NCBI GenBank assembly: GCA_965215365.1
Contig: CBDCDS010000003.1
Span: forward strand, 1,088,001 to 1,152,000
Length of the DNA stretch: 64,000 nt
DNA from: Gammaproteobacteria bacterium
GTDB lineage: Bacteria > Pseudomonadota > Gammaproteobacteria > Eutrophobiales > Eutrophobiaceae
Direction of reading: 5' to 3'
In this document: positions 47,277 to 64,000 of the stretch, in pieces
Layout: each line of letters starts with the position of its first letter
How positions within the stretch are numbered: position 1 is the first letter of the stretch
Translations under genes and position numbers: made by a program
The notes under the pieces: model-generated
The model's database searches: none
Seen by the model: the letters and a program-made list of their open reading frames with translations, nothing else
What the model was told of the DNA's origin: nothing

Positions 47277-47446
47277 TTGACAGGACAACCCCTGGAATTT
47301 ATCGACCTGAAGACGCAACAGGCGCGCCTGGGTGACAGGGTTCCGCGGGCAATCCAACGGGTGCTGGACCATGGTCGCTACATCATGGGCCCGGAAGTGC
47401 AGGAAATGGAGGCACAACTTGCCCGCTTCAGCGGCGGCCAATATTC
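47277..47446 (+). pseudogene. Truncated DegT/WbpE-like aminotransferase
   Basis: EFIDLKTQQ..VLDHGRYIMGPEV.E.E..LA; breaks off just before a family B mini-palindrome. Confidence 0.85.
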
Positions 47447-47476
47447 AGGTCACCTCTCACAAACACGAGGTGACCT
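47447..47476. repeat. Family B mini-palindrome
   Basis: AGGTCACCTC-TCACAAACAC-GAGGTGACCT (10-bp perfect IR). Confidence 0.85.
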
Positions 47477-47851
47477 TCAGTACCTTAAATCCTCTGCGGC
47501 GACATTGAGCGCGCGGGCGATAGCAGCCAGGGTTTTTGTGGCAACGCAACGTCTGCCGGTTTCAATCTGTGACAGATAAACTGAATGAACCCGTACCAGG
47601 CTGGCAAGCTGCTGCTGTGTCATACCGCGAAACTTGCGGTACACCTTGAGTGGGCAGTTGCCGGCCAGAAGACTGTCTGCCACTGCAATGGGAAAAGCTT
47701 CATCAATACTGGATTTGGCTTCGTTGTACAGGTCTTCATCGGTGGGTGGTTGCACCGCACTGCCCATTCTCAGGCAATGATATACCCGCCAGGGAATCAC
47801 TGCGAACATCGGGCTGCCTGTACTGTCACGAATAATTTGCGGTTCTGTCAT
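47477..47851 (-). CDS. XRE-family HTH antitoxin
   Basis: PLKVYRKFRGMTQQQLA...YLSQIETGRR. Confidence 0.88.
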   Translation of the reverse strand: MTEPQIIRDSTGSPMFAVIPWRVYHCLRMGSAVQPPTDEDLYNEAKSSIDEAFPIAVADSLLAGNCPLKVYRKFRGMTQQQLASLVRVHSVYLSQIETGRRCVATKTLAAIARALNVAAEDLRY

Positions 47852-48138: not shown

Positions 48139-48165
48139 TGGTTTGCTCTGTGGACTCCACAGGTT

Positions 48166-48409
48166 TAACCCGCAGATCTCACCCAGTCGCTTGTTGCTTT
48201 GTGCAACATGATGGCTCTCAATAAGTTATGATCATACTGCTGCTCTTTCCACCTAACCTACTGCGCTTGATGCGCCCTCGCTGGTCTTGGTTCTGCCTGC
48301 AGGCACGTGCTTCCTCAACCAGAGAACCACTATGGTTTCGGTCGCAGGCACCCGCAGGCAGAACCAATCCGGCGCGATCTTCGCATCACCCGGTGAGATA
48401 TGCGGGTTA
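48166..48409 (+). mobile_element. Full-length MITE A, TA-flanked; further end fragments at 48513-48532, 49468-49497 and 57573-57591
   Basis: TA-ACCCGCAGATCTCACC...GGTGAGATATGCGGGT-TA. Confidence 0.9.
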
Positions 48410-48440
48410 AGTACCTGCAGCATTACCTAGGCAGGGTGGA

Positions 48441-48496
48441 TTGAAAAGCAAAAGATCATCAAAAATGTGGGAAAAGTCACATTTTTGTGAAAAAAG
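48441..48496. repeat. Orphan fragment of the Uma2-associated element, including the CRP-like box (48463-48484)
   Basis: TGAAAAGCAAAAGATCATCAAAAATGTGGGAAAAGTCACATTTTTGTGAAAAAAG, near-identical to 57442-57496. Confidence 0.85.
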
Positions 48497-48578
48497 TTGA
48501 GCGAGGAGGTAGTTGGTGAGATATGCGGGCTAAACCGGCGAAGTCGGGAGCAAAACGAATTGAGGCTGCGCTTAGGTC

Positions 48579-48968
48579 TCAGCGAATACAACGTATATCA
48601 ACGCCCGGGAGGTTCAGTTGCTCCCAGGCCTTGTCAGCAGTAAGGACCGGGAGGCATGCAATGTATGCCGATGCAAGACAGGCGCGATCACCCAGCCCTA
48701 ATCCCAAGGATTGAGTTGCGACGCGATAGCGGCCGCTCAACAACGCAATATCGATATCAAACGGCAATATCCGAATGCCCAACTCCCTGAATACAAGCGA
48801 GACTTCCTCATCTCCCCAACCCTCCTGATGCAGGCGCGCGGCAACCTCTGCGGCATTGACGGCAGACATCGCCGCGCTGGAACGTAAGGCATCAACAACC
48901 ACATCGGCGCCTGTTTCTTCCAATATCGCCGCCAGCACGGCGGAGGCATCAAGAAGTGTTCCCGCCAT
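48579..48968 (-). CDS. vapC: VapC PIN-domain toxin
   Basis: LLDASAVLA..E, SAVNAAEV, LGLGDRACLA, VLTADKAW. Confidence 0.92.
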   Translation of the reverse strand: MAGTLLDASAVLAAILEETGADVVVDALRSSAAMSAVNAAEVAARLHQEGWGDEEVSLVFRELGIRILPFDIDIALLSGRYRVATQSLGLGLGDRACLASAYIACLPVLTADKAWEQLNLPGVDIRCIR

Positions 48969-53229: not shown

Positions 53230-54504
53230 TCAAGGTGACCCACGGCTGGAAAAGTTTGCCACATCTTCTAGGTAATTTACAAAATTCTGGTAAATTATCT
53301 CGGCCTCGAAACGGCTTTTAAACAGGTTTAGAGCATTCTTGGAAAGTGTTTCCCTAGTCGATGGAGATTCAATGAGGCTGGTAATGCACTGTAACAACTC
53401 AGTGGCAGAATTATAGGTGTAGCCGCAATTATGTTGCTCAATAAGCTCTTTTGATATGCCCTGCAACCAGGAAATAACCGGCAAGCCACTACTGATATAC
53501 TCAAAAAATTTGTTGGACAGTGAATTCTGATAATCTTCGCGCCTTGCCACAGGTTGAATGCCCGCCAGACTGTGCTGCCTGAGCCAGTACAGATTATCGT
53601 GATCAATCTCACCCGGCAGAATAATATTGCCGCAACCTTCTGCCATACCGGTAACTTTATCTCTGTGCTGCCCACTGCCGCAGAATACAAACTTTACCCG
53701 CGGATGTGTCCGTTGCAAGGCTCTGGCTGCCTGTATTACAGGCTCAAACACTGAGGATATGGTGCTGTTCAATCTACCGGCGAAGTAAATGATCACGTCG
53801 TCATAAAAATTTACCTGTTGTTCCCGCCAGAACTTTGCAGAGATACTTTCATCAAGTTTCGTTGCTGTGGATTGGAAGCCCAGCTCAAACACGCAATCAA
53901 GCGAGCCTGCTTTCCGCTCAGCATAGCTCAACAGGTAATCCAGAAAAAAATCCGTGATACCAACCAGACCGGTTGCTGCTCTGCAAGCAAAACGCAGATC
54001 TTTCCTCATCAATGCTATGACGGGGCTTGCCAGCAGTGCCTTTGCTCCGGTCAGTTCGGTGGCTATGATGTCAGGCCACATATCCCTAGCATCCAGCACC
54101 AGTGGCACCTTGAATTGTCTCGCAAGCAAGGCGCAGGCCTTAGCTATTGACGGAGTTGGCATGGCGCTAACAATAAGGTCAGGTTTGTTTTGGTCGGCAG
54201 CTTTGACTGCCAGTTTATGGAACTTGTGGTAAAGCAATTGGTTATTCAACAGGCGCCTGAGTGAAACCGGTTTTTGGTAACTCACAGATGTATGCACGAA
54301 CCTGATGTCGTAGCCCGACTTATATTTGACCGTATGGTCTTTGCCGAACCTTTGCATCTTGGCAAGATGGTCGTAGTCCGAGCACCAACGCGTCACGCGA
54401 TGGCCCTTGCTGTGCAGTGCATCGGCCAGCATGGACATTCTGTAGGGTCGAAACACAGGGTCGGTCGGAACCTGTTCCTCTAGCTTTACCAGCCAGACAT
54501 ACAT
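53230..54504 (-). CDS. GT4-like glycosyltransferase
   Basis: DARDMWPD, YFAGR, NKFFEYISSGLPVI. Confidence 0.88.
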   Translation of the reverse strand: MYVWLVKLEEQVPTDPVFRPYRMSMLADALHSKGHRVTRWCSDYDHLAKMQRFGKDHTVKYKSGYDIRFVHTSVSYQKPVSLRRLLNNQLLYHKFHKLAVKAADQNKPDLIVSAMPTPSIAKACALLARQFKVPLVLDARDMWPDIIATELTGAKALLASPVIALMRKDLRFACRAATGLVGITDFFLDYLLSYAERKAGSLDCVFELGFQSTATKLDESISAKFWREQQVNFYDDVIIYFAGRLNSTISSVFEPVIQAARALQRTHPRVKFVFCGSGQHRDKVTGMAEGCGNIILPGEIDHDNLYWLRQHSLAGIQPVARREDYQNSLSNKFFEYISSGLPVISWLQGISKELIEQHNCGYTYNSATELLQCITSLIESPSTRETLSKNALNLFKSRFEAEIIYQNFVNYLEDVANFSSRGSP

Positions 54505-54507
54505 GGG

Positions 54508-55623
54508 CTAGCAATCGTTTCGGCTTTCGCCAAAATATGTCCTGATACTGCTTATTACATACTGCACATTGTCGTCCGTCAGCTGTTCTCCCATAGGTAA
54601 ACTTAACAGCTGTGAGTCAGTGTGATTACAGAATGTATCCGCAGCTGCCTGTCCCAGATAGCGATAGGCCTCAAGTTTTGCCAGGGCCACCGGGTAGTGG
54701 ATGCCAGTTTGAATGCCTTTTTCATACAGATATGATTTCAGCCCGTCACGGTCTCCAACCCGGATGACAAACAAGTGATAAACATGCCGGCTCCACTGCG
54801 CTGCAACGGGCAGGATGCAGCCCGGGATATGGGCAAGCCCGCTTGCATACTGCCTAGCGATCTCGATCCTGCGCTCGGTCCAGCGCTCAAGATGTTGTAG
54901 TTTTACTGATAATACAGCAGCCTGAAGCCCATCCAGCCTGGAATTCCTGCCTTCAAATTCGTGGTTGAATTTGGAACTTCGCCCATGGTTGGCAATTTTT
55001 CTCAATTTGCCCGCCAGTGTTTCGTCCTTAACGGTGATGGCGCCAGCATCGCCATAAGCGCCCAGATTTTTGCCGGGATAAAAACTGAAGGCGCCGAAAT
55101 GCCCCATTGAGCCGACTTTCCGGCCCTTGTACTCAGCCCCATGAGCTTGCGCACAATCTTCAATTACCGCCAGATGATGTTTGTCTGCCAATTCCATAAT
55201 CGGGTCCATATCACACGGATGACCGTACAGGTGTACAGCGAGTATCGCCCCTGTTTTCGCGTTCAGGTGGGGTTCTGCGGTTTCGGCGCTGATAGTATAT
55301 GTGTCAGGGTCAACATCTGCGAACCTGACCGTATGATTGGTACGAGTAACCGCCTCGGCGCTGGCAATAAACGTATTGCCGGGGACGATAACCTCGCTAC
55401 ATGGGGGTAAATCGGCGGCTTGCAGTGCTATTTCGATGGCATCTGTGCCATTGCCAACCCCGATACAGTAGTTACTTTCACAATAGTCAGCAAACGCGGC
55501 TTCAAACTCTGCCAGTTTCTCACCACCGATAAATTCTGCTTTTTCAATGACTTCGAATACTGCTGCGTCTATTGCTGCTTTAATACTATGGTATTGAGCG
55601 GTCAGATCCAGGAATTTAATCAT
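54508..55623 (-). CDS. DegT/DnrJ/EryC1 sugar aminotransferase
   Basis: GNGTDA, VHLYG, EDCAQAHG, SFYPGKNLGAYGDAG, NSRLD. Confidence 0.95.
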   Translation of the reverse strand: MIKFLDLTAQYHSIKAAIDAAVFEVIEKAEFIGGEKLAEFEAAFADYCESNYCIGVGNGTDAIEIALQAADLPPCSEVIVPGNTFIASAEAVTRTNHTVRFADVDPDTYTISAETAEPHLNAKTGAILAVHLYGHPCDMDPIMELADKHHLAVIEDCAQAHGAEYKGRKVGSMGHFGAFSFYPGKNLGAYGDAGAITVKDETLAGKLRKIANHGRSSKFNHEFEGRNSRLDGLQAAVLSVKLQHLERWTERRIEIARQYASGLAHIPGCILPVAAQWSRHVYHLFVIRVGDRDGLKSYLYEKGIQTGIHYPVALAKLEAYRYLGQAAADTFCNHTDSQLLSLPMGEQLTDDNVQYVISSIRTYFGESRNDC

Positions 55624-55693
55624 CCAATTTCCGTCTCAATGCCGCTGGGTTGCGTCCATGGATGGATGCAATGAGGGAAATGAAAAATCATAC

Positions 55694-55745
55694 TTTTTCA
55701 TTTCCGTCTCTAAAAATACCACGGAGGGTATTTTTAGAGGTTCCC
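55694..55745. repeat. Family B palindrome
   Basis: TTTTTCATTTCCGTCTCTAAAAATACCACGGAGGGTATTTTTAGAGGTTCCC; both ends are shared with 9620-9742. Confidence 0.8.
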
Positions 55746-55791
55746 ATAAGTACTGGCGATAGCGATATTTTTCGATGCAGGGTATGTACTG

Positions 55792-56859
55792 TCATTTGCC
55801 CAAACGACACTTTGCAGGTGCAAAACGCAATTTTATTTCCTTGGATGTTTCAACGGATTCGTAGATTGCAGTGATCAGTTCTAGGCTGCGCCTGCCTTCA
55901 AGTCCGTCAACCAGATGCTGTTTCTGGTTGATGATAGCATCGACAACATGCTTGTAATAGGCCTTGTGACCAAATCCGTAAACATCAGGCGGGTTTACCG
56001 AATACTTTTCAACGACTTCGTGATCTTCGGCAGTTGCCTCAACAAACTCCCAGGTTTTCAACTGGTTAACCGCAAAACCACCAATTTCCACGCTACCCCG
56101 CTCGCCTAGTATGGATAATGAGCCTTCCAGATCTTTTGGCCTTGTGGCTGTGGTAGCTTCGATCAGGCCCAGTGCGCCATTGTTAAATCTCAGGGCGACG
56201 ACAGCCGTATCTTCCGCCTCAATATCAACCAGTGCCGTGGCGCTCATGGCAAAGACACTCTCTACATCCCCCATCATCCACTCAAGCAGGTCTATGTGGT
56301 GGCTCGCCTGGTTTGTCAACACACCGCCATCCAGGGCCCAGGTGCCACGCCATTGATCCTGATCGTAGTAGGACTGCGCCCGGCACCAGCGCACTCGCGC
56401 CGTTCCCAGTACCAGTTTGCCGAAGCGGCCGGCCTCCAGCGCCTCACGGGTCTTTACAACAGGTACATTAAACCGGTTTTGTTTGACAACAAACAGCTTG
56501 CAGCCAGATGAATCACAAGCCGTTATCATGGCATCGGCATCGTCCAGGGTCAAAGCCATGGGTTTTTCGACGATGATATGTTTGCCATAGCGCGCCAGAT
56601 CAATGACATGTTGTGCGTGCCGGCCACTTTCCGTTAACACAACAACAACGTCGATCTCCTCAGACTGCATCATGTCATGCATATTCTCATAGGCCGGCAC
56701 GTTGAATTGACCAGCTGTTTTCATCGCTTTGGCAAGCGTAGTGTCACAAACGGCAGCCAGACTGGCGCCGTCAATTTGATGGTGGCCCAACAGTTCGGAA
56801 TGGCGCTTAGCTATTCTGCCACAGCCAACTAGGGCAAATGTGAGAGTATCTTTTTTCAC
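55792..56859 (-). CDS. Gfo/Idh/MocA oxidoreductase (WlbA/WbpB-like sugar 3-dehydrogenase)
   Basis: VGCGRIA, VEKPMA, VVKQNRFN, WRGTW..DGGVLTNQASH; GTG start at 56859 (the ORF extends to 56901). Confidence 0.92.
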   Translation of the reverse strand: MKKDTLTFALVGCGRIAKRHSELLGHHQIDGASLAAVCDTTLAKAMKTAGQFNVPAYENMHDMMQSEEIDVVVVLTESGRHAQHVIDLARYGKHIIVEKPMALTLDDADAMITACDSSGCKLFVVKQNRFNVPVVKTREALEAGRFGKLVLGTARVRWCRAQSYYDQDQWRGTWALDGGVLTNQASHHIDLLEWMMGDVESVFAMSATALVDIEAEDTAVVALRFNNGALGLIEATTATRPKDLEGSLSILGERGSVEIGGFAVNQLKTWEFVEATAEDHEVVEKYSVNPPDVYGFGHKAYYKHVVDAIINQKQHLVDGLEGRRSLELITAIYESVETSKEIKLRFAPAKCRLGK

Positions 56860-57080
56860 AGCTATAAATTTAACGAATTTGGACAGCGCAGCTGGCCCCA
56901 TCGGGGCAAACTACACGGATGTAGTTTGCAAATCGTCTATCCTGACGATTTGTCATTTTCAAGCACTTACGTGCTTGCTGTTACTGGCAGCATATCCTTA
57001 TGCTGCACGGGTGCTTCTAATCGCACTGGCGACGCATTATATAATGATCCTGGGTACGGACATAGAATTCGATTCAGGTC

Positions 57081-57166
57081 GCAGCAGGGTGACGGCAACC
57101 TTCTTGGATTTGCAGGCAGAGTCAGGGGGGGGGCGGAAACTTGATGCCTCTCTTAACTTGCCTTCA
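57081..57166 (+). pseudogene. C-terminal-region remnant of an Uma2-family gene
   Basis: RVTATFLDLQAESGGGRKLDASLNLPS aligns with MTVTFLDLQAESKPMEIDMSLNLPD of 59012-59803. Confidence 0.75.
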
Positions 57167-57501
57167 GAGTATCTCCCGACTTCAACATGCCCATGCCAAA
57201 GGGGGTGGCTTGTAGGAGGTCACCAACCGGATGTCAAACCACCCCCTTGGCGCCCGCAGGCTGTCCTTGATCCGTGGCCACGGCCAATGGAAACCGGGCC
57301 CGCCTGCGGGCATGCAGGCAATCAGCAGTTCCAATTCCTTGCAGCTGATCCACCAGCCCCGGTTGCAGTTGCCAGGTGCAACCACTGGGCCCGTGACCTT
57401 GTTCCCTCAGGCAGTGGTGATTCTATCTGTTTCGGATAACCTGAAAAGCAAAAAATCATCAAAAATGTGGGAAAACTCACATTTTTGCGAAAAAAGATGG
57501 C
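57167..57501. repeat. Conserved structured non-coding element, copy 1 (candidate ncRNA/promoter cassette)
   Basis: 335 bp; one visible mismatch versus copy 3; five IR stems; CRP-like box at 57463-57484. Confidence 0.9.
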
Positions 57502-57602
57502 TATTGTGCGCAGCTTCGGCTCCGACAAGACAACAGGGTATCCATTTGTTCGCCGTTCACCACCTAAAGAACTAACCCGCAGATCTCACCCCTTGTCATT
57601 TC

Positions 57603-57611
57603 TGGTATACT
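57603..57611 (+). promoter_or_regulatory. Extended -10 promoter of the Uma2 gene (equivalents at 58967-58975 and 60316-60324)
   Basis: TGGTATACT / TGCTACAAT / TGCTATACT, each after GTCATTTC and 33-36 nt before the ATG. Confidence 0.65.
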
Positions 57612-57644
57612 CGGCGCAGGTTTTGTTAAAAGTGCGGCGGCCAC

Positions 57645-58463
57645 ATGAATAGCGTTACGGCATTATCGTCTAATCCTTTTTTGCACAGCATCGAAGACAG
57701 GCTGCGCGAGCAACTGAAGGAAACAAAACAGACTTCACTGGGGTCGGAGTATGTGGCGTTTCATGCCAGCCGGGACGATGTGGTTGCCTTGGCTGCATCA
57801 GATATGGTGAATACCTTCCGGCGTGTGGTGCTTGATCCGGTACGGGAACTGGTGGTGCTGATGGCGCCAAGTGGAAGGCACGAGTGGATTTCAGGCGATA
57901 TAGATCGTTTTGCCAGCAGTGTGTGTACCTTGAAGGGGATTAAGATGGAACAGCTGAGGGCCACCCGCTGGCGCCGGGAGAGCGATCCGAAGAACACCGG
58001 CAATGAAGCGGATTGCAGTTTTTATTTCGGCGAAAAAGCGCTTGGTTATGTTGCGGCGCGTGCGCGGAGTGAGGATGAGGATGATGCATATACGTTTCGA
58101 GTGCCGCCGGACCTGGTGGTGGAGATAGGGCTGACCCATGTATCGAAGGAGAAATATCTGAGTTACCGGGACAAGGGCGTAGCCGAATTCTGGCAGTTGA
58201 ATGCGCACCCGCGCAAACAGGGCGGAAGCATGGTAACGGTCGCCTTTCTGGATTTACAGGCACAGCCGAGGCCATTGAAAATTGACACATCACTTAATTT
58301 GCCTAGTGTCACTCCGGTGCACGTTAGCAGGTTTTTTCGCCTGCGGTCTGGAAAATTGCTGGATCATTATGAGGTTATCGAAGCAGTTCGCGCGCTCCTT
58401 GAAGATGACAACAGCGGCATGATGGTTCGTGAGGAAGCCGAAGAATATGAACTTGCAAACTGA
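57645..58463 (+). CDS. Uma2/DUF820-family PD-(D/E)XK endonuclease-like protein
   Basis: MAPS..HE, EADCSFY, PPDLVVEI, Y...GV.EFW. Confidence 0.85.
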   Translation: MNSVTALSSNPFLHSIEDRLREQLKETKQTSLGSEYVAFHASRDDVVALAASDMVNTFRRVVLDPVRELVVLMAPSGRHEWISGDIDRFASSVCTLKGIKMEQLRATRWRRESDPKNTGNEADCSFYFGEKALGYVAARARSEDEDDAYTFRVPPDLVVEIGLTHVSKEKYLSYRDKGVAEFWQLNAHPRKQGGSMVTVAFLDLQAQPRPLKIDTSLNLPSVTPVHVSRFFRLRSGKLLDHYEVIEAVRALLEDDNSGMMVREEAEEYELAN

Positions 58464-58546
58464 AGCAAGGACTTACTCATAATACCTAGTCAGTCCTCCG
58501 GCAGCCGCGTTCACTGTCAGTAACAGCCACGATTTTTACCCATTCG

Positions 58547-58872
58547 GGGTATCTCCCGACTTCAACATGCCCATGCCAAAGGGGGTGGCTTGTAGGAGGT
58601 CACCAACCGGATGTCAAACCACCCCCTTGGCGCCCGCAGGCTGTCCTTGATCCGTGGCCACGGCCAATGGAAACCGGGCCCGCCTGCGGGCATGCAGGCA
58701 ATCAGCAGTTCCAGCTGATCCACCAGCCCCGGTTGCAGTTGTCAGGTGCAACCACTGGGCTCGTGACCTTGTTTCCCTCAGGCAATGACGATTCTATCGG
58801 TTTCGGATATCCTGAAAAGCAAAAAATCATCAAAAATGTGGGAAAACTCACATTTTTGTGAAAAAAGATGGC
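58547..58872. repeat. Conserved structured non-coding element, copy 2
   Basis: 326 bp; 10-nt loop deletion, 1-nt insertion and a few substitutions; CRP-like box at 58834-58855. Confidence 0.9.
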
Positions 58873-59011
58873 TATTATGTGCAGCTTCGGCTCCAACGGG
58901 ACAACAGGGCATCCATTTGTTCGCCGTTCATCGCATCAAGAATCGAATTCGTCCCCCGGTCATTTCTGCTACAATTAACGCAGGTTTAATTCAAGGTATG
59001 GGGACGGCGAT

Positions 59012-59803
59012 ATGAACAGTGTTACGGCCTTGCCTGCCAATCTTCTTTTGCAGGACAGGGAAGTTAAAAGTACATCTTTAGGGTCTGGATACGTCGCGTT
59101 TCATGCCAGCCGGGATGAGGTGGTTGCCTTGGCGGCCTCAGACCTGGTGAATACGTTCCGGCGGGTGGTACTCGATCCGGTGCGTGGCCTGGTGATGCTG
59201 ATGTCGCCGAGTGCCGGGCATGATGATGTTTCGGGGGTAATAGATGATTTTGTCGGCAGCGTTACCACCTTGAAGAAAATTAAGACAAAAAAACTGCGTG
59301 CTACCCGCTGGCGTCAGGAGAATGAACCGAAGAACACCGGTAATGAAGCAGATTGCAGTTTTTACTTTGGTGACAAGGCTCGGGGTTTCGCAAAAGCGAG
59401 TTCGATGAGTATTGAGGAAGGCGATGCTTACTCGTTCAAGGTGCCGCCAGACCTGGTGGTTGAGGTTGGGCTTACCCATGTATCAAAGCAGAAGTACCTG
59501 AGTTATCGGGACAAGGGAGTGGTCGAGCTCTGGCAGTTGAATGCCCGTTCTCACAGGCAGGGTCACAGGATAATGACAGTGACCTTTTTGGATTTGCAGG
59601 CGGAGTCGAAGCCGATGGAAATTGACATGTCACTTAATCTTCCCGATGTCACGCCTGCTCACGTTGCCAGGTTCATACGAGAACAGTCTGGAAAATTACT
59701 GGATCATTATGAGGTTATCGAAGCAGTTCGCGCACTCCTTGAAGATGACAACAGCGGCATGATGGTTCGTGAGGAAGCCGAAGAGTACGAGGCCGCAAGC
59801 TGA
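59012..59803 (+). CDS. Uma2/DUF820-family endonuclease-like protein, diverged paralogue
   Basis: MSPS..HD, EADCSFY, PPDLVVEV, Y...GV.ELW. Confidence 0.85.
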   Translation: MNSVTALPANLLLQDREVKSTSLGSGYVAFHASRDEVVALAASDLVNTFRRVVLDPVRGLVMLMSPSAGHDDVSGVIDDFVGSVTTLKKIKTKKLRATRWRQENEPKNTGNEADCSFYFGDKARGFAKASSMSIEEGDAYSFKVPPDLVVEVGLTHVSKQKYLSYRDKGVVELWQLNARSHRQGHRIMTVTFLDLQAESKPMEIDMSLNLPDVTPAHVARFIREQSGKLLDHYEVIEAVRALLEDDNSGMMVREEAEEYEAAS

Positions 59804-59886
59804 AGCAAGGGCTTACCTGTAATGTCTGGCAGGTCCTACGGCAGCCACGCTTGCCGGGAATGATAGCCAGGATTTTTATTGCCTCG

Positions 59887-60221
59887 GAGTATCTCCCGAC
59901 TTCAACATGCCCATGCCAAAGGGGGTGGCTTGTAGGAGGTCACCAACCGGATGTCAAACCACCCCCTTGGCGCCCGCAGGCTGTCCTTGATCCGTGGCCA
60001 CGGCCAATGGAAACCGGGCCCGCCTGCGGGCATGCAGGCAATCAGCAGTTCCAATTCCTTGCAGCTGATCCACCAGCCCCGGTTGCAGTTGCCAGGTGCA
60101 ACCACTGGGCCCGTGACCTTGTTCCCTCAGGCAGTGGTGATTCTATCTGTTTCGGATAACCTGAAAAGCAAAAAATCATCAAAAATGTGGGAAAACTCAC
60201 ATTTTTGTGAAAAAAGATGGC
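59887..60221. repeat. Conserved structured non-coding element, copy 3
   Basis: 335 bp; CRP-like box at 60183-60204. Confidence 0.9.
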
Positions 60222-60360
60222 AGTCGCGCGCAGTTTTGCTCTTCAACAGGGCGAGAAGGCATCTGTTTGTTCGCCATTCACCGCCTGAAGAACCTGAAGC
60301 GCCGCTTGTCATTTCTGCTATACTCAACCTAGGTTTTATGCAAACTACGACGGCAGCTAC

Positions 60361-60576
60361 ATGAACAGCGTTACGGCGTTATCGGCTAATCCTTTTTTGC
60401 GCAGCATCGAAGACAGGCTACGTGAGCGACTGGGGGACATGCAATGCACTGCCTTTGGCTCGGAGTACGTTGCGTTCCATGCCAGCCGGGATGAGGCAGT
60501 TCGCAATCTCCTTGAAGACAGGAACAGTGGCATGATGATTCGTGAGGAAGCAGAAGAATACGAACTTGTAAGCTGA
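60361..60576 (+). pseudogene. Uma2 paralogue with in-frame deletion of the entire catalytic core
   Basis: N-terminus (…YVAFHASRDE) is joined to the C-terminus (AVRNLLED.NSGMM.REEAEEYE). Confidence 0.85.
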
Positions 60577-60597
60577 GGCAAGGGCTTACCCATCTGC

Positions 60598-61470
60598 ATG
60601 CATCGTATAGCTATAACAGGAGCGGGCGGATTCATTGGAACGCACTTGAGCAGGCATTTGGACACCCGGGGTTTTAATTTTGTGACCATGAGGAGGACGG
60701 AAAATGATTTCATTTATCCGCCGAACCCGGAGGCATTTGACTCAATTATCCATCTGGCAGCCAGAGCGCATAAGAAAAAAAGCCAAAAGACCAAACTATC
60801 CTATACGTTGAACCTTGCCGAAAAGGCTATCAATTCCAACGTAAGGCAGTTCATCTTTATAAGTTCCATAGGGGTGTTGGGAGAGTTTTCCGGGAGTTCA
60901 CCCTTTAACTCCGATAGCCCATATAATCCTTATAACGATTATTCGATCTCAAAAATGGAGGCGGAAGAAGCGATAAAACGGGTCTTTCATGGTACTGATG
61001 TAAAGTGGACAATTATCAGACCCCCTCTGGTTTATGGCACTGGCGCAAAAGGGAACTTTAGAACGCTCAGTAATTTGGTCCAGAGAGTGCCGATTATGCC
61101 TCTGGGCTCAATCAAAGCAGTACGCTCCTTTTGTTCGGTAAACAATTTATGTGATCTGATTATTAATTGTTTGGGTAATGAGAGATCATATAGCCAGACA
61201 TTTCTTGTCAGTGATGACATTAGTTTAGCTCTGACAGATATGATTAAGATGCTTTACAGGAGTCTGGATAAGTCCTGTTGGCTCGTCCCCGTCCCTTATC
61301 CTCTCATGTATCTGGCGGGTTTGATTACCGGTAAAACTCAGGCCTTGAGAAAACTGAACAGTTCACTGACTCTGGACATCAGTCACACAAAAGAAACCTT
61401 GGGCTGGCGGCCACCTTATGCTATGGAAGCGGAAATCAGAAAGGCATTAAATGATGATCAGGCTGTTTGA
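60598..61470 (+). CDS. NAD-dependent sugar epimerase/reductase (WbpV-like)
   Basis: TGAGGFIG, HLAARAH, YSISK, IRPPLVYG, RSF. Confidence 0.9.
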   Translation: MHRIAITGAGGFIGTHLSRHLDTRGFNFVTMRRTENDFIYPPNPEAFDSIIHLAARAHKKKSQKTKLSYTLNLAEKAINSNVRQFIFISSIGVLGEFSGSSPFNSDSPYNPYNDYSISKMEAEEAIKRVFHGTDVKWTIIRPPLVYGTGAKGNFRTLSNLVQRVPIMPLGSIKAVRSFCSVNNLCDLIINCLGNERSYSQTFLVSDDISLALTDMIKMLYRSLDKSCWLVPVPYPLMYLAGLITGKTQALRKLNSSLTLDISHTKETLGWRPPYAMEAEIRKALNDDQAV

Positions 61471-62017
61471 TATCTTACTATCCATTACTGCCCTGATCTT
61501 GCTGGCACCGTTCATGGTTGTGATTTATCTGTTGATTATGGCCGAAACCAGAGACCCCGTATACGTTCAGGAAAGGGTCGGTTATAAACAACGAGCATTC
61601 ATTCTTTATAAATTTCGCACCATGAAATCCAACACCCCCTCACTGGCTACACATCTGGTCAGTGAGAGTGCTTTGACGGTGACGGGCAGATTGTTGAGAA
61701 AAACCAAATTCGATGAATTGCCGCAACTGATTAACGTACTCAGGGGCGAGATGAGTCTGGTGGGGCCGAGACCATGTTTGTTCAACCAGTCGGAACTTAT
61801 TCTTGCCCGTGACAGGCTTGGGGTTTTCCAGGTGCTGCCTGGCATAACCGGTTTGTCTCAACTCAGAAAGATTGACATGTCCATGCCAGAACTGCTTGCC
61901 AGCTCGGATGCTGAGATGATTAGTGGTTTTTCGCTTGCCAGATATTTCCAATACCTTGTTTTAACAGCATTGGGTCTGGGCGCCGGTGATCGAGTTGATA
62001 AAAATCCCGTTAAGTGA
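61451..62017 (+). CDS. Small monotopic phosphoglycosyl transferase (Bac_transf family)
   Basis: RLFDI, QERVG, KFRTM, DELPQL.NVL.GEMSLVGPRP, PGITG. Confidence 0.93.
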   Translation: MMIRLFDILLSITALILLAPFMVVIYLLIMAETRDPVYVQERVGYKQRAFILYKFRTMKSNTPSLATHLVSESALTVTGRLLRKTKFDELPQLINVLRGEMSLVGPRPCLFNQSELILARDRLGVFQVLPGITGLSQLRKIDMSMPELLASSDAEMISGFSLARYFQYLVLTALGLGAGDRVDKNPVK

Positions 62018-62088
62018 ATCATATTTGATCTTGTTGTAAAGTCATTGCTGCGGACTCCAACATCGAATAAGCAAATTTGCAGGACCTG

Positions 62089-63969
62089 ATGCTCAGTAAA
62101 CCGAAAATAAATTCTTCAGCCCTACACTCGTATATTCGTACCGGCGTATTTGTCCACGACCTCCTCATGATCCCCGCGGCCTGGTATCTGGCTTACTGGC
62201 TGCGCTTCAACTTAGGCACGATACCGGAGAATTCTTTATATGTGGCCACCGTAATGTTGCCGGTAGTGATCGTCTGCCAGACCGGCAGTTATGTGGCGTT
62301 CGGTTTGTATCGCGGCATCTGGCGTTTTGCCTCCATGTACGATTTTATGCGCATCGGTAAATCGGTTTACGTCGGCGCTTTGCTGGCGACTGTGGTGATC
62401 TTTGCCTTCACCCGCATGCAGCATGTGCCGCGGTCGGTGATACCCTTGTACATCATCCTGTTGTTTATCTTTCTGGGTGGGAACCGGGCCTGGTACCGCG
62501 CCTTCAAGGATCAACGCCTGCGCGCCAGCGACGGCAAGCGGGTGTTAATCATCGGCGCCGGCGAGTCGGCCCAGATGCTGGTGCGGGACATGCTGCAACA
62601 TGCCCGGAGGGAATACCTGCCCGTGGGCATGATCGATGACAACCCTGAGAAAATCAACCGGGAAATTCATGGGATACAGGTACTGGGCCGGTTTGATGAT
62701 ATTCCCGAGGTAGTCATGCGTCATGCCATAGACCTGATTGTCATCGCCATCCCCTCATTGAGTTCCGCCCGCATGCAACATCTTGTGAGTCTCTGCGAGG
62801 ACACCGGCACAGACTTCAAAACCCTGCCCAGGCTGGGCGACCTGATTTCCGGCCAGGTGACCGTGAATGCCATCCAGGAAGTTTCCATCGAAGATTTGCT
62901 GGGGCGGGAGAAGGTTGAGCTGGATCGGCCCGGTATGCGGGACGGATTGACCGGCAAAGTAATCATGGTAACCGGTGGCGGGGGGTCCATAGGTACGGAA
63001 CTGTGCCGCCAGATCGCCGGATTTGCACCGGAGGCTTTGATTATCTATGAGCGTAGCGAGTTCAACCTGTACCGGATCCAGAATGAAATCGAGCGCCGTT
63101 ATCCGCAACTCAATCTGGTTACGATATTAGGTGACGTATGCGAACAACGACTGGTTGAAAATGTCCTGCAACGCTATCAGCCCGACATGGTGCTGCACGC
63201 CGCCGCATACAAGCAGGTGCCGCTGTTGCAGGCGCACCCGGCCCAGGCCGTCAGGAACAACGTCATCGGCACCCGCATTTGCGCTGACGCGGCAGGTCGT
63301 AGTGGCTGCGACAAGTTCGTGTTCATTTCCACCGACAAGGCCGTTAACCCGACCAACATCCTCGGCGCCACCAAGCGCGCCGGCGAGATCTACTGCGAGG
63401 GCATGAATACGGTCTGTTCAACGCGCTTCATCACCGTCAGGTTCGGTAACGTGCTGGGCTCCGATGGTAGCGTGGTGCCGCTGTTCAGGGAACAAATCCG
63501 TGCCGGCGGGCCGCTGACGGTAACCCATCCCGACATGACCCGCTACTTCATGACCATCAGGGAGGCCTGTCAGTTGATCCTGCAAGCCAGCGTGGTGGAA
63601 CAGGAAGGGGGGATTTACGTGCTGGACATGGGCGAGCCGGTCAGCATCGACTATCTGGCAGAGCAAATGATCCGTCTGTCCGGCAAGGAGCCCGGAAAAG
63701 ATATTGCAATTCAATATACAGGCCTGCGAGCCGGCGAGAAATTGTATGAGGAACTGTTCTACAATGACGAAGCCAAGGAAACAACAATAAATGACAAGGT
63801 ATTCCGGGCAAGACATGCCAACGCCGACTGGCCCCGGATAAGGCAGGCCCTGGCGCGGTTGGAACAATCCCTGGACAAGTTGGGAGACGACGATATCAAG
63901 CGTGCATTGGCCGCGATTGTGCCGCAATACAAGGATGCGGATACGCCGGAAATCGTCAAGGTTGCCTGA
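62089..63969 (+). CDS. Nucleoside-diphosphate sugar dehydratase (WbpM/PglF/CapD)
   Basis: N-terminal TM helices, IEDLLGRE, TGGGGSIG, STDKAVNP, VRFGNVLGS.GSV, TRYFMTI.EA, GEKLYEEL. Confidence 0.95.
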   Translation: MLSKPKINSSALHSYIRTGVFVHDLLMIPAAWYLAYWLRFNLGTIPENSLYVATVMLPVVIVCQTGSYVAFGLYRGIWRFASMYDFMRIGKSVYVGALLATVVIFAFTRMQHVPRSVIPLYIILLFIFLGGNRAWYRAFKDQRLRASDGKRVLIIGAGESAQMLVRDMLQHARREYLPVGMIDDNPEKINREIHGIQVLGRFDDIPEVVMRHAIDLIVIAIPSLSSARMQHLVSLCEDTGTDFKTLPRLGDLISGQVTVNAIQEVSIEDLLGREKVELDRPGMRDGLTGKVIMVTGGGGSIGTELCRQIAGFAPEALIIYERSEFNLYRIQNEIERRYPQLNLVTILGDVCEQRLVENVLQRYQPDMVLHAAAYKQVPLLQAHPAQAVRNNVIGTRICADAAGRSGCDKFVFISTDKAVNPTNILGATKRAGEIYCEGMNTVCSTRFITVRFGNVLGSDGSVVPLFREQIRAGGPLTVTHPDMTRYFMTIREACQLILQASVVEQEGGIYVLDMGEPVSIDYLAEQMIRLSGKEPGKDIAIQYTGLRAGEKLYEELFYNDEAKETTINDKVFRARHANADWPRIRQALARLEQSLDKLGDDDIKRALAAIVPQYKDADTPEIVKVA

Positions 63970-64000
63970 TGATTTTGCCAGCGAGGGCATAGCAGACCAG

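Follow-up and report, generated by a model that had tools for sequence, protein, structure and literature searches.

A candidate small-RNA gene with a CRP-type promoter, repeated between Uma2-family nuclease genes in an uncultured gammaproteobacterium

A 64,000-nt stretch of contig CBDCDS010000003.1 of a Gammaproteobacteria bacterium (assembly GCA_965215365.1, positions 1,088,001 to 1,152,000 of the forward strand; hereafter the window) contains three copies of a non-coding element of about 335 nt, which alternate with genes of the Uma2 nuclease family. The element is probably the gene of a small structured RNA, which is read from the minus strand under its own CRP-type promoter, is independent of the Uma2 genes and is present in copies that recombine with each other. 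The analysis establishes the repeats, the conservation of the promoter motifs, the covariation, the taxonomic distribution, a partial linkage with Uma2 and the concerted evolution of the copies. A dedicated partnership between Uma2 and the RNA, which had been proposed in an initial annotation of this region, is not supported. The genome of the window is designated G000, the contig C3 (the window being C3:1088001-1152000), and a syntenic relative in the same genus G006. The three elements are located as follows.

57164-57500, minus strand: element copy 1, candidate small-RNA gene with promoter, whole unit (repeat search, BLAST)
58544-58871, minus strand: element copy 2, with a 10-nt deletion in a variable hairpin (repeat search, covariance model)
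59884-60220, minus strand: element copy 3 (repeat search, covariance model)

The order of the array is Uma2 remnant, element 1, Uma2 gene 1, element 2, Uma2 gene 2, element 3 and core-deleted Uma2, and both this order and the tandem unit of ~1.35 kb agree with the initial annotation. The repeat search revealed a 300-nt family at positions 57164-57463, 58544-58843 and 59884-60183, spaced by 1380 and 1340 nt. In the ungapped repeat comparison copy 3 was 100% identical to copy 1, and copy 2 only 67% identical because of its 10-nt deletion, the gapped identity of copy 2 being 96.9-97.6%; in gapped alignment the three elements are 96.9-99.4% identical to each other. A base-by-base comparison of copies 1 and 3 found mismatches at 57166 and 57488 and the next one at 57502, beyond which the identity breaks down. 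The near-identical tract 57167-57501, with the single mismatch at 57488, coincides exactly with the predicted RNA and its promoter, and the annotated difference of one base in ~335 is thus correct. The intact Uma2 genes share only 75.8% of nucleotides and ~70% of amino acid residues, so that the non-coding part is indeed more conserved than the coding one, as had been pointed out.

The identity of the copies does not result from assembly collapse, a risk that had been named in the annotation. In sequencing run X1 the depth of the short-read contigs was 89.1 over 57169-57333, which is common to the three copies, 60 over 57304-57469, which is shared by copies 1 and 3 only, and 28.6-28.8 on the unique flanks. 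These ratios of ~3x and ~2x fit three copies, and the X1 pieces listed (n=8) show no differences from the window. The GC-rich 230 nt of the element are present in this genome only in the three copies, while six further places carry the AT-rich 90 nt by themselves. A generic miniature inverted-repeat transposable element (MITE) or a repeat of the repetitive extragenic palindromic (REP) type does not fit the data: no inverted repeats of at least 20 nt were found in 54000-64000, and there are three full copies (target duplications were not examined systematically), whereas a true MITE-like family in the same genome has at least 81 near-full-length copies. A small coding open reading frame (ORF) in the element was also ruled out, since the ATG-to-TGA frame is kept in just 16 of 26 copies, the ATG is missing in divergent copies and copy 2 carries its 10-nt deletion.

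The wider comparison was based on 44 distinct copies, which came from the BLAST loci and from species-representative genomes scanned with a pattern. The scan gave 61 stretches, some of them in unrelated phyla, and only those confirmed by nhmmer were used; the matching records are entitled 'MAG: Gammaproteobacteria bacterium'. The promoter tables include 42 of the 44 copies, the promoter end of the other two being replaced by other sequence. The AT-rich end of each window copy contains the following promoter features.

57420-57447, minus strand: sigma-70-type promoter of copy 1, -35 TTTTCA at 57447-57442, 16-nt spacer, -10 TAGAAT at 57425-57420 (promoter scan)
57466-57481, palindromic: CRP-type site TGTGG-N6-TCACA of copy 1, centred at ~-60.5 from the inferred start (copy comparison)
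58791-58852, minus strand: promoter of copy 2, -10 at 58796-58791, -35 at 58818-58813, CRP-type site at 58837-58852 (promoter scan)
60140-60201, minus strand: promoter of copy 3, -10 at 60145-60140, -35 at 60167-60162, CRP-type site at 60186-60201 (promoter scan)

The arrangement TTTTCA-16-TAGAAT on the minus strand of each copy accounts for three of the four promoter-like sites in the region, with 2.6 +/- 1.7 sites in shuffled sequences. The -10 hexamer follows TA[ACG][AG]AT in 42 of 42 copies (typically TAAAAT or TAGAAT), and the spacer between -35 and -10 has a fixed length of 16 nt and a variable sequence. The palindrome TGTGN-N6-NCACA is kept in 40 of 42 copies, mostly with AAA/TTT flanks, and in all 40 its distance to the -10 is exactly 40 nt. 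TGTGA-N6-TCACA is the CRP consensus, and a site near -61.5 is characteristic of class I CRP-dependent promoters. The centre of the palindrome falls at -60.5 if transcription begins 7 nt after the -10 and at -61.5 if it begins 8 nt after it, so that the class I position is matched, given a start site that is inferred. In divergent copies the A/T runs around the palindrome are unpaired and no T-run is left, yet the core and the spacing remain exact. This indicates a protein-binding site and not a terminator stem, and the palindrome was rejected as a terminator on these grounds. The genome encodes one clear CRP/FNR-family protein of 244 aa, on C3, with the helix ...S-H-R-E-A-V-S-R..., whose best NCBIfam match is CRP, at 53 bits, far below the cut-off of 266. 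It appears from the promoter motifs that transcription of the element may be controlled by a CRP-like protein.

At the six places where the promoter part occurs alone, an ORF starts 48-280 nt away on the downstream side in five, and one of these ORFs encodes a ComEA-like HHH_3 protein. One lone promoter part with the CRP-type palindrome, -35 and -10 and without an RNA body is in the window, at 48423-48499. It follows a truncated DegT-like ORF (47277-47579) and faces a minus-strand unit of two ORFs (48579-48968 and the next one), which by eye resemble a PIN toxin and an AbrB-type antitoxin; the site looks like a decayed form of the aminotransferase-element junction known from relatives. The same CRP-type palindrome was also seen beside ORFs of 151-227 aa in a tandem unit of 706 nt on C2, a small contig of G000 (C2:5172-5936), and in a chromosomal copy (C3:1649580-1649655). 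Two of these ORFs were scanned and gave no Pfam match.

Downstream of the promoter, the GC-rich part of the element corresponds to the predicted RNA, which would start 7 nt after the -10, as deduced from the promoter.

57183-57413, minus strand: predicted RNA body of copy 1, ~225-230 nt (124.4 bits with covariance model R1, covariation, G-U bias)
~58563-58784, minus strand: predicted RNA body of copy 2 (covariance model)
~59903-60133, minus strand: predicted RNA body of copy 3 (covariance model)

The 3' domain of the RNA (57183-57326 in copy 1) is predicted to fold into a three-way junction whose helices covary and which contains the invariant unpaired stretch CCACGGAUCAAGGACAGCC. A covariance model, which the initial annotation had recommended, was built for this 3' half of the minus-strand RNA (R1; 143 positions, 33 pairs). 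The model contains three helices: P1' closes the junction, P2' is a GC-rich hairpin, and P3' is a long hairpin interrupted by a tandem purine mismatch. The invariant, mostly unpaired stretch lies in P3', reads CCA-N-GGAUCA-R-GGACAGCC and includes a tandem CA-N-GGA; its unpaired nucleotides are kept in all genomic contexts. Two alignments were used, A3 with 43 of the 44 copies (copy 1 left out) and the model-guided A4 with 63 matches, 48 of them distinct, from 53 loci searched. In A4, 92.1% of cells form standard pairs against a shuffle mean of 86.2%, and changes on both sides of a pair were found at 14 of 33 pairs, in 110 cells, with at most 8 pairs and 33 cells in controls slid by 1-3 columns. 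None of 500 shuffles reached the observed values, a count that overstates the support, as A4 was fitted to the model and is made up of closely related sequences. The same helices contain 93 G-U cells and 36 A-C cells, the latter being G-U if read on the other strand, and this excess of G-U on the minus reading agrees with the direction of the promoter. With covarying helices and without a conserved reading frame, the element can be described as structured and non-coding, in line with the annotation. No Rfam 15 family matched at E values up to 1 in 56800-60700 on either strand, and ARAGORN detected no tRNA or tmRNA.

The RNA family is confined to a single genus of uncultured Gammaproteobacteria and is new as a family. 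As was found by BLAST among 60 relatives, 12 of the genus's 22 other genomes contain the element, and a single genome from another genus gave a weak 26-nt match. Model R1 found matches in G000 and in 19 of the 22 other genus genomes, with 1-9 matches in each and about 60 places in all; beyond the genus, one of 103 family genomes gave two weak matches (E ~5e-4). A metagenome scan with a 20-nt pattern returned 12 stretches, including two full-length strong model matches (119.6 and 98.9 bits) and three short, weak, partial ones. The plasmid and phage collections gave no match to the element in a distant-mode search. The titles of the records and the origin of the reads suggest metagenomes of the sponge and coral type.

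The lowest-scoring members, mostly single-copy, share one orthologous locus, where proS starts downstream of the RNA in 9 of 10 cases and in 8 of 10 the gene of the acetolactate synthase large subunit is found past the promoter end. Among the divergent copies proS is downstream in 7 of 14 (Pfam; this set overlaps the 10 loci). It is likely that the copy between proS and the acetolactate synthase gene is the ancestral single copy. The proS gene is preceded by a TGGTATAAT-like promoter of its own, located between its start codon and the RNA, and two loci contain a small ORF inserted at this point; therefore, the RNA looks like a separate unit and not like a proS leader. A T-box or another proS leader was rejected for the same promoter and for the lack of an Rfam match. 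G000 itself has no proS-linked copy, and its proS and acetolactate synthase genes are ~1 Mb apart. The higher-scoring, multi-copy lineage, to which the window copies belong, is found in polysaccharide loci, where the element follows a DegT-type aminotransferase gene and faces a gene for a 380-aa glycosyltransferase, or lies beside a gene for a 231-246-aa coiled-coil protein.

Several features of the loci of relatives were recorded along the way. The 231-246-aa protein (locus L043, 3667-4362, minus strand; homologues in G008, G018 and G021) has N-terminal coiled-coil-like charged repeats and is often encoded just downstream of the RNA in the same direction. Its weak matches are to PD-(D/E)XK and CARF-nuclease-type proteins (PADLOC, E ~4e-4) and to Hjc (NCBIfam, E 0.006). 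In the relative G003, palindromic repeats of ~90 nt (GGGGTCAGAGTAAAAATA ... TATTTTTACTCTGACCCC) bracket the proS-linked RNA gene (locus L052, 2016-2106 and 2460-2560), and a similar repeat lies between the RNA and proS in locus L100. A conserved small ORF of ~53 aa (MNYELVT...) is located between the RNA gene and proS in two species (loci L057 and L086); the N-terminal half of its product is hydrophobic, and a TGGTATAAAAT promoter-like motif precedes it.

The Uma2 genes of the array were identified as follows.

57077-57160, plus strand: Uma2 remnant, C-terminal part (~profile positions 193-221), abutting the distal end of element 1
57603-57611, plus strand: extended -10-like motif TGGTATACT, candidate promoter of Uma2 itself, ~35-45 nt before the start codon of gene 1
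57645-58463, plus strand: Uma2-family gene 1, 272 aa, PD-(D/E)XK fold (Pfam PF05685)
59012-59803, plus strand: Uma2-family gene 2, 263 aa, ~70% protein identity to gene 1
60361-60576, plus strand: core-deleted Uma2 ORF, 71 aa, with N-terminal 47 and C-terminal 27 residues (Uma2 profile)

The family assignment made in the initial annotation can be retained, directly for gene 1 and through homology for gene 2. Gene 1 exceeds the PF05685 cut-off barely (27.6 bits against 27, E 2.4e-6), and gene 2 taken alone does not reach it and has no Pfam match in the Pfam scan. Many of 90 homologues carry a precomputed PF05685 match, and one that is 69% identical is named 'Uma2 family endonuclease' by NCBI. 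Both proteins match the PADLOC defence candidate PDC-S17 (E 2.3e-9 for gene 1, 1.8e-10 for gene 2). The translation of the remnant contains ...GRSRVTATFLDLQAES..., which matches the equivalent stretch in both intact genes (repeat family D8), and an equivalent remnant-element junction, again with profile positions 193-221, exists in G006. The core of the last ORF is considered deleted because its matches are confined to profile positions 1-47 and 246-272; by position it is the counterpart of the fourth G006 gene, since the epimerase gene adjoins it in both genomes. The motif TGnTAYAMT occurs ~35-45 nt before the Uma2 start codon in 8 of 10 aligned upstream regions, those of solitary genes included. 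Uma2 thus carries its own promoter-like motif, and the element is not needed as its promoter.

The linkage of the element with Uma2 was counted in flanks of up to 2 kb, some of them shorter, which were scanned with the Uma2 profile. A Uma2 gene is directly beyond the AT-rich promoter end in 11 of the 44 copies and only on the other side in 4; none is present in the flanks examined of 28, and the one remaining copy has a partial Uma2 gene 1.2 kb away. Seen from the side of the nuclease, 17 of the 20 close Uma2 genes (at least 63% identity) were assessable, and the element is upstream of 9 and not upstream of 8, while within ~300 nt downstream it is found, in convergent orientation, for 6 of the same 17. 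It is absent from all 13 loci of more distant Uma2 paralogues. The linked cases are the arrays in G000, G006, G018 and G002, and they represent few independent events because the array Uma2 genes of G000 and G006 are orthologous. Co-occurrence is therefore not obligate by any of these counts. The annotation had regarded the frequency of adjacent Uma2 genes as a check on its own proposal, and the outcome is divided: adjacency stands for the 11 copies with Uma2 beside the promoter end and fails for the 28 without Uma2. A dedicated Uma2-RNA system does not follow from linkage that is partial, from an RNA predicted on the strand opposite to Uma2 and from nuclease genes with a -10-like motif of their own.

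The comparison with G006 provides a history of the array. The order in G006 is Uma2, element, Uma2, element, Uma2, element, a three-gene operon, remnant, element, Uma2 and epimerase. The orthologues of the window genes there have 93.0% (gene 1) and 90.2% (gene 2) nucleotide identity, against 71-77% among the paralogues, which indicates that the paralogous nucleases are old and stable. The elements behave in the opposite way. Those of the window are 77.8-89.0% identical to any element of G006, that is, far less than to each other; in G006 the two elements flanking the operon are 94.7% identical, and the other two are 78-84% identical to the rest. Greater likeness within a genome than between genomes points to homogenisation after the species split, i.e. 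gene conversion. The array lies on opposite sides of the operon in G000 and G006, and one paralogue is missing in G000; both the switch of side and the loss are likely to have come about by recombination between the repeats. A contig of run X7, from a related strain, connects 57572 with 60308, a hint that the array has variants. The second alternative of the initial annotation, a recombining repeat, thus fits these data.

Taken together, the data are best explained if each element is a complete small-RNA gene in its own right, lying on the minus strand. Its AT-rich end would be the promoter, with the CRP-type site ~60-61 nt before the start, the -35 TTTTCA, the 16-nt spacer and the -10, and the GC-rich ~225 nt downstream would be the RNA, with P1', P3' and P2' making up the three-way junction of its 3' half. 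The invariant unpaired stretch may be the surface that meets a target mRNA or protein, and the RNA would act in trans on mRNAs or a protein under a CRP-like regulator. The younger lineage appears to have multiplied within surface-polysaccharide loci. There the RNA gene copies would serve as blocks of homology, kept alike by gene conversion, and recombination between them likely rearranges the Uma2 cassettes. The neighbouring Uma2 genes would be independent, self-promoted nucleases, possibly of a selfish or defence-related kind.

A number of observations weigh against this reading. None of the 24 sequencing runs listed is recorded as RNA. Transcription of the minus strand is itself predicted from sequence features, and the shuffle statistics are inflated as explained above. 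A-C cells do exist, e.g. 10 at one P2' pair. Single-sequence folding of the minus strand is unexceptional (z = -2.5, -0.7 and -1.0), and the z value of the plus strand, over all 337 nt, is -4.4. In the 5' half of the RNA, three invariant pairs and no covariation were obtained with RNAalifold, which was run on 39 of the 44 copies (two with replaced promoter end, one identical duplicate and two others being omitted). No intrinsic terminator was found after the RNA; apart from the CRP-type palindrome, the only terminator-like match is a weak hairpin situated at the stop codon of Uma2. Many copies direct the RNA towards the 3' end of a convergently oriented gene, an odd position for a gene that stands free. 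The linkage with Uma2, though partial, is well above nothing, with 9 of 17 close genes, all of them in arrays. The search for targets by 11-mers complementary to the invariant stretch yielded scattered single matches, which were judged to be at chance level without a shuffled control.

Among the alternatives, a portable promoter with a structured 5' leader, derived from a duplicated piece of the proS-ilvB intergenic region, is unlikely, though it is the main rival. Copy 1 would then drive the oxidoreductase operon next to the array, and unequal crossing-over would have produced copies 2 and 3 as by-products. Such a leader agrees with the lack of a terminator after the RNA, with the promoter part that alone precedes ordinary ORFs elsewhere in the genome and with co-directional ORFs that start 35-490 nt past the RNA in many copies, namely proS (the 7 of 14 divergent copies), the 231-246-aa coiled-coil protein, an AAA_5 protein and the oxidoreductase operon (window and G006). 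These downstream genes have no common function, however, and proS has its own promoter, with the small ORF inserted in two loci. The next gene is convergent in several copies, and the DegT-type aminotransferase gene ends ~30 nt from the RNA. Copies 1-3 have all stayed intact and almost identical, even though nothing but Uma2 3' ends lies in front of copies 2 and 3, and the invariant unpaired nucleotides are kept whatever the context. A further reading places the function on the plus strand, as an RNA or DNA structure of a 3' untranslated or intergenic region ending in an A5-stem-T5 palindrome that acts as a (bidirectional) terminator. The strong plus-strand fold, the terminator-like palindrome with T-run between convergent genes in several loci, the 36 A-C cells that become G-U on this strand and the similar consensus fold energies (-119.6 kcal/mol for plus, -125.8 for minus) speak for it. 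It is nevertheless the least probable of the readings considered: the divergent copies lose the A/T pairing and the T-run and keep TGTGA-N6-TCACA at its exact distance from the -10, G-U cells favour the minus strand by 93 to 36, and the proS-linked copies have a divergent gene upstream and hence no source of read-through.

The element as an RNA partner of Uma2, be it an antitoxin (type III-like or a convergent, type I-like antisense RNA), a guide or a scaffold, is improbable. The tandem alternation in four genomes, the upstream and convergent downstream positions counted above, the match to PDC-S17 and the 3' ends of the paralogues, which are unusually alike (83-88% over 101 nt), are what it would predict, and Uma2 is described as a likely solo toxin that lacks a known antitoxin (PMC2701414). 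On the other hand, the 28 copies without Uma2 include all 14 divergent and the proS-linked ones, close genes lacking an upstream element are almost as many as those having one, and the distant paralogues have none. The arrays share their ancestry, Uma2 has its own promoter-like motif, and the type III layout fails on the promoter orientation and the G-U bias, which both point to the other strand. A narrower variant is quite improbable as well. Here the proS-linked copies would be ancestral and the RNA would have been recruited later as a regulator of the 'solo toxin' Uma2, either by running convergently from its CRP-type promoter into the conserved 3' end of the preceding Uma2 mRNA or by binding the protein through the CA-N-GGA tandem, and would restrain the nuclease until cyclic AMP (cAMP)/CRP signalling drops. 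If true, this would make the RNA a type I-like antitoxin directed at a PD-(D/E)XK nuclease and set in a polysaccharide, i.e. phage-receptor, locus.

If instead the element is a free-standing RNA gene, as preferred here, it represents a structured small RNA that has not been described before, is restricted to one genus and has a CRP-type promoter conserved unusually well. Such an RNA is a candidate for Rfam and would provide access to the cAMP/CRP regulation of organisms that cannot be cultivated. It is also a clean case of an RNA gene under concerted evolution beside stably diverged paralogous nuclease genes, and it offers a likely route for the rearrangement of Uma2 cassettes in a surface-polysaccharide locus. 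For this case the idea of a dedicated Uma2-RNA pair is removed, and the 'solo toxin' question of Uma2 stays. The find amounts to a tidy RNA family with clear concerted evolution, and to no new kind of system.

The array is flanked by a minus-strand sugar-modifying operon on one side and by a plus-strand epimerase gene on the other. The first gene of the operon is the following.

55792-56901, minus strand: GFO/IDH/MocA oxidoreductase, ~280 nt downstream of the copy 1 RNA and co-directional with it

The next ORFs of the operon (371 and 424 aa) resemble in size and position the DegT-type aminotransferase and the glycosyltransferase of the loci of relatives. Within the array the gap between the Uma2 stop codon and the conserved end of the RNA is ~100 nt. 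Short hairpin repeats of REP-like appearance occupy 56872-57021, between the start of the oxidoreductase gene and the Uma2 remnant. This block has 77 BLAST matches in the genome, four of them of at least 100 nt, a contig depth of 370-1730 against ~29-220 on its flanks, and many loose ends in all four runs. The MITE-like repeat of ~250 bp is located at 48161-48412, with terminal inverted repeats TTAACCCGCAGATCTCACC ... GGTGAGATATGCGGGTTAA; its family has 186 BLAST matches in the 2.7-Mb genome, 81 of them of at least 100 nt, with 91-95% identity among the top matches listed. A fragment of its end is also present at 57563-57585, between element 1 and Uma2 gene 1. Elsewhere in G000 (C3:1370899-1381822), an 11-mer occurs 13 times on the minus strand, the first 12 with an exact period of 840 nt and the last 1683 nt further on, which suggests a long tandem-repeat gene or array.

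Tandem arrays of Uma2 (PF05685/COG4636) paralogues without a protein antitoxin are described for cyanobacteria in PMC2701414, where the solo-toxin notion is put forward. The array of the window resembles these cassettes as a tandem set of paralogues, and it differs in its gammaproteobacterial host, its polysaccharide locus, the interleaved RNA gene and the age of the paralogues, which have orthologues across species. A candidate structured RNA ~400 bases upstream of Uma2 genes, CRISPRCas_45, is reported for type V-A loci of Eubacterium in PMC9067536. It is likewise upstream of genes for Uma2-family endonucleases, and its host and CRISPR-Cas setting set it apart from the element by description only. 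Among the titles and abstract openings listed by a single full-text literature search, none described an RNA partner of a Uma2 endonuclease.

Type III (ToxIN) and type I toxin-antitoxin systems have in common with the array a nuclease-fold gene beside a structured RNA gene. In type III systems the RNA lies directly upstream on the strand of the toxin gene, with a terminator between the two, and consists of short tandem repeats; the element RNA is on the other strand, as predicted from the promoter and the G-U bias, and the repeat search found families at the level of the whole unit and no internal direct repeats of at least 20 nt in the element (Tandem Repeats Finder was not run). In type I pairs of Bacillus the RNA overlaps the 3' end of the toxin gene convergently, and the RNA of the array is similarly convergent with the preceding Uma2 gene; the 'toxin' would, however, be a 272-aa nuclease-fold protein in place of a small membrane peptide. 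Unlike both types, the linkage here is not obligate.

Decoy RNAs of the Csr/Rsm system (CsrB, RsmY, RsmZ) carry many GGA motifs, in excess of what composition predicts and mostly in loops, and are preceded by the GacA/UvrY box of 18 bp. The element has GGA at four conserved positions (36, 40, 42 and 41 of 42 copies), two of which form the unpaired tandem CA-N-GGA, and the genome encodes CsrA; CsrB, RsmZ and RsmY were not found in this genome. In contrast to such decoys, GGA is not enriched (4-9 per RNA, with 4.1-6.3 expected from composition), a terminator is lacking and the palindrome has the CRP spacing, so that the decoy was rejected and is a weak lead only.

Near-identical non-coding repeats between diverged genes, more alike within a genome than between genomes, are also known from integron attC arrays, including the Vibrio cholerae repeats (VCR), and from the rRNA-like mode of concerted evolution. 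The element differs from attC sites in its length of ~335 nt, its own promoter and its occurrence as a single copy at a housekeeping locus. An integron was rejected because the window lacks an integrase (no search for attC core sites was made); the three Phage_integrase matches of the genome are at C3:986437, C3:1240499 and C2:14836, the nearest ~90-100 kb off.

CyaR and Spot 42 are CRP-controlled small RNAs of enterobacteria, roughly 90-110 nt long. The RNA of the element, in contrast, is ~225 nt long, occurs in 1-9 copies per genome within one genus, has no intrinsic terminator and matches no Rfam family. Like them, it would come from a free-standing non-coding RNA gene whose promoter bears a TGTGA-N6-TCACA site, and this CRP-type site, if functional, would tie the level of the RNA to cAMP or carbon status.

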